A stretch of 64,000 nucleotides of DNA from Candidatus Poribacteria bacterium (GTDB lineage: Bacteria > Poribacteria > WGA-4E > WGA-3G), in contig OZ244048.1 of assembly GCA_965215265.1 (NCBI GenBank), positions 160,001 through 224,000 of the forward strand, given 5' to 3'. Every line of letters begins with the position of its first letter. Within the stretch, counting starts at the first letter, position 1. Shown piece by piece: positions 51,201 to 54,256 of this stretch. Both the position numbers and the translations under genes were made by a program. Below the pieces are notes generated by a model. That model saw nothing but the letters and a program-made list of their open reading frames with translations. It was not told where the DNA came from and did not search any database.

Positions 51201-51686
51201 TTAGTCGTTTGGTTCTGATAGTTTACGTGCTGCAGCTAAATATAATTCTTGGCCTTGCTTCTGAAATGGGCATGACTTAACTGGATTGTCAGGGAATTTT
51301 GAGAACAAAGCCGTTTGACTAACCTCATCAAGGTCTAATGGATATCCTAACTGCTTGATTTCTCCCAAGTAAGCGAGGCCCCAGTATTCAAGATCGAACA
51401 TGAAACAGTGGATGTAACACAGAACTTCAATGTTTTTTAGCGTCGCCCCGGTTTCCTCTAGTAGTTCACGGTGAGCAGCTTCCTCGGCCGATTCCCCCGG
51501 TTCAACCCTTCCTCCAGGTAACATCCAGTTTTGATTCTCACGCCATTTGCAGAACAGGATGCAATTTTGCTGATGGGCGAGACAAACCACAAACTGGATT
51601 TGCCCTATGTCTGCTGGTGGCTCTCCCCAATAGAGTAACATATTTCCTGCTTGTCCTTCAATTTTTTGAACCGTTTTTTTTCGCAC
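51201..51686 (-). CDS. NUDIX hydrolase
   Basis: Nudix box 'GGRVEPGESAEEAAHRELLEETG'. Confidence 0.9.
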   Translation of the reverse strand: MRKKTVQKIEGQAGNMLLYWGEPPADIGQIQFVVCLAHQQNCILFCKWRENQNWMLPGGRVEPGESAEEAAHRELLEETGATLKNIEVLCYIHCFMFDLEYWGLAYLGEIKQLGYPLDLDEVSQTALFSKFPDNPVKSCPFQKQGQELYLAAARKLSEPND

Positions 51687-51925
51687 TACCGTCTGAAGTT
51701 CCTTTCATTGTTATTAATCTGTGAGACAGATTCCACAGTTTTCCGTATTTTGGAATAAGCAGCGTATACGCCGGTCCGGAAAGTTCGAAACAGACATCTT
51801 TGACAAAAAGTGCCGGATGTCCTCCTAAAAGGCGACAGGTGGCATGCGTTTTTTTCCTCAAAACTTATACTTTTTATTTATAATAACACATCCGTGAATT
51901 ATTTTCAAGCAGAGATAAATCAGGC

Positions 51926-51985
51926 GGAGAAAAAAGAGAAAGAGGTGTGATGGCATTCGGCACACGGCCTACTCACCATCACACC
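51926..51985 (-). terminator. Hairpin plus pyrimidine/U tract downstream of the cohesin-dockerin-FGE gene
   Basis: The minus strand reads GGTGTGATGG-N22-CCATCACACC followed by TCTTTCTCTTTTTT. Confidence 0.65.
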
Positions 51986-52046
51986 CCGGGTTTTATCTTT
52001 GGCTGTTCATAAGCCTATCTGCATGCGGATCGGAACGGGTAAAGAT

Positions 52047-53567
52047 TTAAGGAGTAACAGCCCTCGCACACCGGAACCCGAAGCTGTCGAACGTGTACGT
52101 CGGTGTACCCCCGTTGCGATCGGCGACACGCAGGGAACGTGAATTAAAGTTCCAACTCCCGCCACGCAACACGCGATATGACTTAACATGTGTGAATTTA
52201 TTTACAATCAAATCCAGATTCGATATGGTGTTCACGTCGCTCAGCGGATTCCGAGACGGCGAACTAAAATAGAAATCCGAATCATACGCATCCAGACACC
52301 ACTCGTAAACGTTGCCGGCCATGTCGAACAGCCCATACCCGTTCGCCACATAATCCCCCACAGCCGTTGTATCGTTTACAGTCCTATGGTAGTTCGCCTT
52401 CGCAGGGGATATCGTATTTCCCCACGGATACTTTAACCCTACCCAACCACCCCGTGCCGCTTTCTCCCATTCCGCCTCCGTTGGAAGCCGCTTACCTACC
52501 CACACGGAATATGCCATCGCCGCATACCACGACACATACGTCACAGGATGGTTCGCCTTACCCGAAGGATAGTTATTACCACTCCAATGGTTTAGGTAAT
52601 TACCATCATGGAGGGCATCCGGAAGACGCGTCTTCTGCCACTGCGGGTTCGCCAGCACAAAACGTTTGTATTCCAGATTCGTCACCTCGTGCGTGTCCAT
52701 GTAGAACGCGTCCACATACACCGTATGCACAGGCTGCTCGTCATTATCGGCATCGGCATCATCACTGCCCATCTGGAATGTGCCGGCGGGGATGAGCACC
52801 ATCCCGGCGGGTGCCGACGGCAGCTCGGTAGTGGGGGTGACCGGCGGCGAGGTAGTGCTACCGCTTGTGGTGCCGAAATTCTGCGCAACCAACACCAGAT
52901 CCGCTATATTCACTACATTATCACCGTTCACATCCGCGCTATTTTGACCCCGCACACCCAAACGCGCCGCTACTAGTGCCAGATCCGCTATATTCACTAC
53001 ATTATCACCGTTCACATCCGCTGGATTCTGCAGAGGATTCTGGGGTGCTGGCACAACTTCCCCATTTACCACACGTGGACTTATCGTCCTACCAGTCGCA
53101 TCCACCACCAGCACATCTGTTAACGTCAATTGCGACGATTTCACAGAGACTATCGCAAACGTCACCGATGCAAGTGTCCCTCCACCGCTGCTACTACCGC
53201 CTAGTGCTGTGGCACCTACCTTCACGCTGCCCCTGCCCACCTCTTCAATCGGCGGCACTACAAACGCACCCGCTGGCAGATAGCTCCCGTTTGCCGAGCG
53301 CACATACCGCAGTGCTGAGCTGTCATACTTCACCGTCGCTTCATACCCGGCAACCTGATTCCCGCTCGCTATCTGAAGTTGAATAGTGAATTCACGCCCT
53401 ACCGACGGCGAATTCACCGTGGCAGGCAAAATGCTCACTGTTTGCGCGTATACATCCCCAACACTACCTAAACTCAGAACCATACACGCCAACATAGACA
53501 ACATCATTGAACCGTTTTTAGCACACATTAAAGGGCTCCAAACCTTTGACACGTTTTTATCATACAT
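52047..53567 (-). CDS. Secreted cohesin + dockerin + FGE-sulfatase (SUMF1/CLec-fold) domain protein; candidate DGR target
   Basis: Signal peptide, cohesin-like beta sandwich ('GYEATVKYDSSAL', 'GTLASVTF'), two 'DVNGDNVVNIADL' repeats, S/T/P linker, and FGE motifs 'MVLIPAGTFQMG', 'RLPTEAEWEKAARGG', 'NGYGLFDMAGNVYEW', 'RVLRGGSW', 'GFRCA'. Confidence 0.9.
   Translation of the reverse strand: MYDKNVSKVWSPLMCAKNGSMMLSMLACMVLSLGSVGDVYAQTVSILPATVNSPSVGREFTIQLQIASGNQVAGYEATVKYDSSALRYVRSANGSYLPAGAFVVPPIEEVGRGSVKVGATALGGSSSGGGTLASVTFAIVSVKSSQLTLTDVLVVDATGRTISPRVVNGEVVPAPQNPLQNPADVNGDNVVNIADLALVAARLGVRGQNSADVNGDNVVNIADLVLVAQNFGTTSGSTTSPPVTPTTELPSAPAGMVLIPAGTFQMGSDDADADNDEQPVHTVYVDAFYMDTHEVTNLEYKRFVLANPQWQKTRLPDALHDGNYLNHWSGNNYPSGKANHPVTYVSWYAAMAYSVWVGKRLPTEAEWEKAARGGWVGLKYPWGNTISPAKANYHRTVNDTTAVGDYVANGYGLFDMAGNVYEWCLDAYDSDFYFSSPSRNPLSDVNTISNLDLIVNKFTHVKSYRVLRGGSWNFNSRSLRVADRNGGTPTYTFDSFGFRCARAVTP
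52895..53021. repeat. Perfect 43-bp direct repeat (52895-52937 and 52979-53021) encoding the two dockerin Ca-binding loops
   Basis: CCAGATCCGCTATATTCACTACATTATCACCGTTCACATCCGC occurs twice with an 84-bp period. Confidence 0.92.
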
Positions 53568-53677
53568 TACATACCTCTAAATGCCGCGAAACGCTCGCCG
53601 CTAAATCGGAGTGCTTGGAGCCGGGACCGCCGCGTCAAACGCAGACGGCACAAACCCCTTTACACATCTGTCTCCCT

Positions 53678-53929
53678 TTACTTCCTTATCAACATCTTCT
53701 GCGTCGCGGAGAAGTCGCCCGCACACAGCGTATAGAAATAGATACCACTTGCAACACGCTCACCATGCTCGTTACGCCCATCCCAATACGCGGCGCGTGC
53801 CTTGCTCTCGTAGCGGCCCGCCGCTTGATGTCCCAATGCTAACGTCCGGACTAACCGCCCGTCCAACGCATAGATAGATATCTCCACATCCGATGGCACT
53901 GCCAGCTGGTATAGCAACCACGTCTCTTC
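53678..53929 (-). pseudogene. Isolated FlgD-Ig/T9SS-type C-terminal sorting domain (gene remnant or stand-alone mini-protein)
   Basis: 'ETWLLYQLAVPSDVEISIY...AAYWDGRNEHGERVASGIYFYTL...KMLIRK'. It lacks the preceding NYPNPFNP and any passenger domain, and an in-frame stop lies just upstream. Confidence 0.7.
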
Positions 53930-54256
53930 GTACGATGACGTACAGTATCTATGCCGTTATGGCAACGGTTGCTTTTATACAAGTTTATCAGAAAACAACA
54001 CTTTTTGGCAAAGTTTACAGTATCGCACAATGAACATTTTATTGTCAACTCTTTTTTTCAAATTTTTTCGCCTCTTTCAGCACGTCACCGACGGTTTTTT
54101 GGTATCTTTCAGCACATAAGACAATGCAAAACAGAGATTGGCCCTGGCGACATTTGTACAACGGTTATCAAAACATCAGACGACATCGATGGACTCAAAT
54201 ACACAAAAATCGGATGTCACATCACATAAACCCGTATAGTACCGAGATAGACAAGT

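Follow-up and report, generated by a model that had tools for sequence, protein, structure and literature searches.

The window analyzed here, a stretch of 64,000 nucleotides (G000:C1:160001-224000), belongs to a Candidatus Poribacteria genome assembled as one contig of 4.83 Mb and 95% complete. It carries a gene whose 3' end bears the adenine-specific marks of a DGR, and the reading we favor, with a probability of roughly 0.6, is that this gene is a former remote target of the single DGR of the genome, now retired. Past diversification by an older template, followed by freezing, appears to fit the gene better than ongoing hypervariability does. An earlier, sequence-only reading of the window had proposed a hypervariable module diversified in trans; the remote DGR and the adenine signature are there, but ongoing diversification is less favored, given a broken hairpin and the traces of an old template.

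The window gene and its variable region

The window gene (positions 52047-53567 of the window, minus strand, as are all features of the gene given below) encodes 506 amino acids arranged as an N-terminal hydrophobic helix, a cohesin, a dockerin, a Pro/Thr linker, and a non-catalytic FGE-type CLec domain. The cohesin (amino acids 50-171; 53055-53420; PF00963, E = 1.9e-9), the type I dockerin with its duplicated repeat (amino acids 183-230; 52878-53021; PF00404, E = 3.4e-7), and the FGE-sulfatase/CLec domain (amino acids 254-502; 52062-52808; PF03781, E = 3.9e-60) all exceed the Pfam cut-offs. An AF2 model calculated from 21 close paralogs had a pLDDT of 40, and a model from 50 rows, with a pLDDT of 72.5, was used instead; it has a helix at amino acids 12-34 (53466-53534) that, taken together with the sequence, is probably a signal peptide. 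The cohesin-dockerin-CLec build proposed in the sequence-only reading is there in the open reading frame and the Pfam domains, and secretion, which that reading also proposed, is suggested by the hydrophobic helix.

The model matches FGE folds as well as TvpA, a DGR protein of Treponema (2y3c, E = 8.3e-11). It is like SUMF1/formylglycine-generating enzyme (PDB 6s07, 2q17) in fold, at about 30% identity, but in alignments to solved FGEs it lacks the catalytic cysteine pair of the true enzymes (the GGS-x-x-C...C loop), as had been noted from the letters alone, and the corresponding loop is the variable region. All three domains occur together in 43 of 119 other homologs, among the matches listed, one of them named Candidatus Poribacteria, and in the ESM Atlas the sole leads were dockerin-plus-FGE clusters scoring below 0.9. 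Immediately 5' of the gene, about 360 nt (53568-53930) share 87-91% identity with the leaders of several sister targets that bear a dockerin, and probably represent a promoter and leader in common with them.

The variable region (VR) comprises 113 nt at the C-terminus of the CLec fold (52064-52176) and aligns without gaps to the template at C1:1421034-1421146, from which it differs at 18 of 35 adenines and at 6 of 78 other positions (Fisher p = 5.8e-7), the aligner having given adenine no preference. All 12 AAY codons of the template keep their third base in the VR and 9 of them are changed at positions 1-2, in agreement with the almost exclusively NNC/NNT variable codons that the sequence-only reading had described. 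The 3' sequence quoted there was found at the gene end, and the template peptide reconstructed from it comes close to the real translation, the present template having A where V had been proposed and N in place of I. At the protein level, 14 of 38 VR columns have an entropy above 2.5 bits across 50 homologs, compared to 5 of 209 columns in the FGE body. The six non-adenine differences are all confined to the 5' half of the VR (52164, 52158, 52155, 52128, 52126, and 52122, spanning 52122-52164); five are synonymous, and all six recur in eight sister regions; for reasons given below we refer to them as old-template markers. Over positions 56-113 of the VR, each of the 35 non-adenine sites agrees with the present template, and the constant, IMH-like 3' end (52064-52079) is common to both sequences, which diverge immediately beyond it.

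On the evidence of the sequence, the window VR is a product of DGR writing, neither of chance nor of ordinary loop drift. An origin by simple divergence of paralogs in a variable loop, without a DGR, is extremely improbable. Distant non-target FGE genes do show some adenine bias against the template, since the template adenines fall in loop codons, but these genes have about 24-33 non-adenine differences, among the matches listed, compared to 6 in the window VR. Furthermore, the genome contains a complete DGR with a matching template, and the retention of third bases effectively refutes such an origin.

The DGR cassette and its dispersed targets

The cassette lies at C1:1.418-1.421 Mb in the order target-avd-RT-template. 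Its RT, a 354-amino-acid open frame at C1:1419880-1420941, is the only one in the genome (PF00078 match at C1:1420096-1420737) and carries YVDD and GIPIGNLTSQ, the latter a motif that we take to mark DGR RTs. An FGE target and an Avd gene (NF033474, 120.2 bits, cut-off 80) precede the RT, and the adenine-rich template follows it, 1,208,858 bases (about 1.21 Mb) from the window VR. The absence of an RT from the window, and the presence of a DGR elsewhere in the genome, had both been anticipated in the sequence-only reading; it had further proposed a template that would differ at adenines alone and sit beside a DGR-type RT, of which the template and the RT were found, but with six non-adenine differences. 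Compared to the template, the cassette's own target is changed at 16 of the 35 adenines and at 0 of the 78 remaining sites, and has one 3-nt insertion. A BLAST search with the template region found gene-borne regions and short stubs only, and no second template in the assembly.

The closest named RT is from an uncultured Poribacteria (83%), and many of the next closest are cyanobacterial (55-60%). Orthologous RTs are present in 8 of the 112 family genomes searched, G000 counted. The same-genus genome G001 has no match to the RT or the FGE DNA and so provides no syntenic orthologue for comparison. In relative G110 there are two RT copies (L214 and L215, 99.2% identical), the second followed by a chimera of template and target whose 13 differences from position 56 onward all fall at adenines. 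The chimera reflects a rearrangement or an assembly error; its interpretation as a second, mutated-looking template produced by self-mutagenesis was rejected on that account. In G080 (L213, ~2711-2820), a repeat in the template position has normal template flanks and an adenine-poor 5' half, as if overwritten (20 adenines, compared to 31-34 in other templates).

A tblastn search with the FGE gave 54 hits, and after removal of 1 duplicate and 14 distant hits below the similarity filter there remained 39 template-like regions in 27 genes, with 0 to 21 non-adenine differences. In one of them, C1:1263656, an internal duplication disturbs the alignment, and for that reason 28 frames are listed for 27 genes. 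Within the regions having at most 12 non-adenine differences, the third base is kept in 303 of 312 changed AAY codons. All six markers are present in 9 of the 39 regions, the window VR being one, and it shows no departure from the consensus of the nine. The four-fold sites of these nine old-type VRs depart at 2 of 72 positions, compared to 51 of 279 in the bodies of the genes. Of 24 body windows matched in size, 0 reach this uniformity, which indicates that the VRs were homogenized after the genes had diverged. At the adenine sites, the sister old-type VRs are identical to the window VR at 7-15 of 35.

Eight templates from seven relatives allow two of the markers to be polarized. Marker 51 is T in seven of the eight and C in none, and all eight have C at marker 55; both are the states of the window VR, the present template being derived and the window VR ancestral at these two sites. 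The remaining four markers are not clearly polarized by the relatives' templates. The sharing of the six markers with eight sister regions and the two ancestral states together suggest that an older template version, differing at six non-adenine bases, wrote the tail of the window gene and at least eight sister regions.

Relative G004 has a similar layering in 26 regions, where two sites vary among several bases between regions although its template now has no adenine there. The codon 5' of the conserved Arg is strongly varied among the G000 sister regions, with its third base fixed and with no adenine there in the present template, whereas in G004 it is mostly constant. As a candidate for an old-type template, one exact match to a 25-nt motif in the JGI metagenomes (exact matches only) was rejected, being a coding FGE-like end.

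Three remote VRs, at C1:1795833, 4150258, and 4795104, have 0 of 78 non-adenine differences from the present template, while the 450 nt 5' of them are only 79-83% identical to the cassette's own target; four-fold departures number 0 of 52 in the regions, compared to 45 of 304 in the bodies. Remote (trans) rewriting in this genome is therefore real. Two of the three are out of frame: 5 bases are missing at four places in C1:4150258-4150365 (L169), and there are 2 extra bases in C1:4795104-4795218 (L171), with the non-adenine sites perfect in both. These indels may have arisen as consensus artefacts where the population is mixed, or they may be true indel errors; as candidates for live remote targets, the two VRs rank first. 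Six of the sister targets have triple CLec domains (L156, L159, L161, L163, L168, and L170), one of them with a caspase-like domain, and others are fusions to a peptidase C39-like domain (L164) or to PA14 (L171).

Downstream hairpins and the present state of the window region

An intact hairpin of 20 nt, with an 8-bp stem and a 4-nt loop, has four exact copies in the genome, behind the cassette target and the three remote VRs that match the present template at all non-adenine sites, each copy 38 nt beyond its VR. The corresponding element of the window gene (52014-52033, minus strand) is decayed: 6 of the 8 stem pairs and a 4-nt loop are left, it lies 30 nt past the VR, and it folds no better than shuffled sequences (z = 0.19, compared to -3.33 for the cassette target). 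The hairpin that the sequence-only reading had placed about 60 nt downstream is a different structure (51920-52000). It does fold above shuffles (z = -3.28), but it was rejected as a DGR hairpin because it belongs to a repeat about 300 bp long, present in 16-22 further copies, that forms the leader of an Rpn-like gene family. Behind the window gene, this leader and a broken 5' stub of an Rpn-like gene span 51690-52010 (minus strand; stub, 51690-51836).

The close Rpn-like subfamily has 17 hits at 74-100% identity, 8 of them within 6 kb downstream of VRs, the cassette's two counted; it may help to disperse target ends, the frequency near VRs being given without a null. Two orphan stubs in non-coding DNA (C1:~2998780-2998885 and ~4393800-4393913) each consist of the last ~25 nt of a VR, the constant end, and the hairpin, each lies 5' of an Rpn-like gene, and most differences between the two fall at template adenines.

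Over 23 gene-terminal regions, in which the paralogs are not independent, stem pairing drops as non-adenine differences climb (rho = -0.67, p = 4.5e-4), a relation equally expected from age alone. Measured against the rule of Wu et al. (PMC5758913), by which current targets have only A-to-N changes with minor exceptions, the window VR stands outside with its six non-adenine differences, and it is likewise not among the seven remote regions having at most two.

Population data come from the contigs of 4 of 18 listed runs, X1 and X3 belonging to one study and X5 to another. In each of X1, X3, and X5, a single contig spans the window VR and is identical to the reference, although contigs drop rare variants, the listed flanks are identical too, and the comparison is without a live-target control. 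The depth of the VR contig is near that of neighboring unique contigs: 529 compared to 510-551 in X1, 282 compared to 327-332 in X3, and 6.15 compared to 8.5-9.4 in X5. There was no VR-spanning piece among the matches listed for X6. X1 and X6 each contribute one contig that fits the two VR flanks but has a different middle, and that may come from the window locus or from a paralog. The variation among reads that the sequence-only reading had looked forward to is thus not seen in X1, X3, and X5, at the level of contigs and in near-clonal samples, one run perhaps being the source sample; the data fit a frozen window VR without proving it.

Two other histories have to be weighed against retirement. 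The region could still be live, rewritten at least in its 3' half or at a low rate, either by the present template or by a sister element that carries the old template and escaped assembly. The IMH-like end is intact, and the match to the present template at positions 56-113 is compatible with a recent rewrite of the 3' half alone; the 5' boundary of DGR rewriting is described as shifting with homology (PMC5758913). In the Bordetella phage, stem disruption lowered switching more than 1000-fold, which favors retirement here, but some residual hairpin-independent activity was reported (PMC3240598). The variant-middle contigs of X1 and X6 and the 95% completeness of the assembly leave further room for this explanation. 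Against it are the broken hairpin, the occurrence of one allele, at close to single-copy depth, in three samples drawn from two studies, the single RT and single template in the assembly, and a metagenome scan for the old-type 5' motif whose one hit is not a template, and on balance we consider continued activity unlikely.

The other possibility is that the gene, or a 3' cassette of it, derives from an earlier cassette-adjacent target by duplication, conversion, or relocation after mutagenesis, never to be rewritten in place. The FGE body of the window gene is closest to the cassette's own target (84.4%), the cassette-adjacent target of relative G024 is likewise a cohesin-dockerin-FGE protein, and in neither G001 (same genus) nor G004 was the gene found in the interval from cstA to the TPP-enzyme gene, so that it may have been written elsewhere and then moved. 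The Rpn-like leader and stub 3' of the gene, as behind the cassette, point the same way, and duplication has been proposed to disperse cyanobacterial paralogs (PMC7517822). Simple duplication, however, would not give nine old-type VRs far more uniform than the bodies of their genes, and the present template demonstrably overwrites distant, diverged genes; writing followed by relocation is therefore rather unlikely. The adjacent NUDIX gene (51201-51686, minus strand) could likewise not be located in the interval from cstA to the TPP-enzyme gene in G001 and G004, and it may form one insertion with the window gene.

If the window gene is a retired remote target, as we favor, its history would run as follows. 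Template RNA would be reverse transcribed with adenine errors, as in established DGR biology, and the cDNA would replace the 3' ends of genes having the template's constant bases, the IMH end, and a short downstream hairpin. The older template would have written the window gene in this way, along with its sisters; later the template would have changed and the hairpin of the window gene decayed, leaving a single variant fixed. The product would be secreted and non-catalytic and would bind its ligand through a variable face now fixed in one form; its cohesin-dockerin module would probably anchor it at the surface, to judge from the domain names only.

In total, the genome gives 8 matches to cohesin and 33 to dockerin; a dockerin is found in 9 of the 27 VR-bearing genes and a cohesin in the window gene only. 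Of 41 genomes searched, 40 contain cohesin-dockerin modules, for the most part in long frames that vary in size, and the modules so appear to be a general surface part of the lineage, not one specific to DGRs. A prediction of the cohesin-dockerin complex scored 0.07 against a mark of 0.32 and is informative neither way. A broader and quite doubtful conjecture is that one cassette recruits dozens of dispersed surface binders in series and retires them again, each being diversified in trans until its hairpin or template match is lost, then frozen as a kept specificity and displayed through cohesin-dockerin contacts, with the window gene, the sole cohesin bearer, as a possible hub for eight dockerin-only sisters. 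If this were true, a host-associated bacterium would carry in its genome an antibody-like archive of binders that could be dated.

Relation to known systems

Remote FGE/CLec targets are already known, and the window gene is most likely a relic in a large target family and does not amount to a novel type of system. What gives it value is the layering of the family to which it belongs and the novelty of the target build. A single-contig genome here holds live-looking and retired targets together, with successive template markers and matching hairpin decay, which makes a life cycle of diversifying, keeping, and switching off directly testable; remote DGR targets are hard to see in fragmented metagenomes (PMC8144416). 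The literature searched held no paper on DGRs in Poribacteria or on dockerin targets, though survey supplements and Poribacteria pangenome work may list them. Dockerin is unmentioned in the main texts of PMC5758913 and PMC8144416; FGE, dockerin, cohesin, and reverse transcriptase are unmentioned in PMC8546597, and Poribacteria in the available part of the clade-5 DGR bioRxiv paper (10.1101/2023.09.22.558884). Cohesin-dockerin-CLec proteins are thus added to DGR targets and Poribacteria probably to DGR hosts, neither being in the papers searched.

The hairpins can be compared to those of Bordetella phage BPP-1, in which the IMH end is followed by an 8-bp stem and a 4-nt loop (PMC3240598), as at the intact targets here. 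The loop of the intact targets here is CGTG, however, and not GRNA, and the stem of the window gene is broken.

A close likeness is to the TvpA DGR of Treponema denticola (2y3c; PMC5758913, PMC4891356), which is likewise chromosomal and has a non-catalytic FGE-type CLec with a C-terminal VR and remote paralogous targets, including triple-FGE targets (PMC5758913). The differences are the Poribacteria host, a target with cohesin and dockerin, and the 39 VR-like regions in 27 genes. Under a strict rule, the Treponema genomes described in PMC5758913 have at most seven remote targets, equal to the seven regions with at most two non-adenine differences here, outside which the window gene falls, although it behaves as a past member of that group would. 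A leftover remote target matching another template type has been described in Treponema strain SP32 (PMC4891356).

Cyanobacterial clade-5 DGRs also have dispersed CLec paralogs with remnant TR-VR homology and with transposases nearby, and it has been proposed that diversification there is switched off once a variant is kept (PMC7517822). Their targets, of which 76 are remote in 21 genomes at a loose 50% cut, are described as mostly cytosolic kinase or caspase fusions (PMC7517822), whereas the targets in this genome look secreted, and old versions of the template can be read here from the markers that they have in common.
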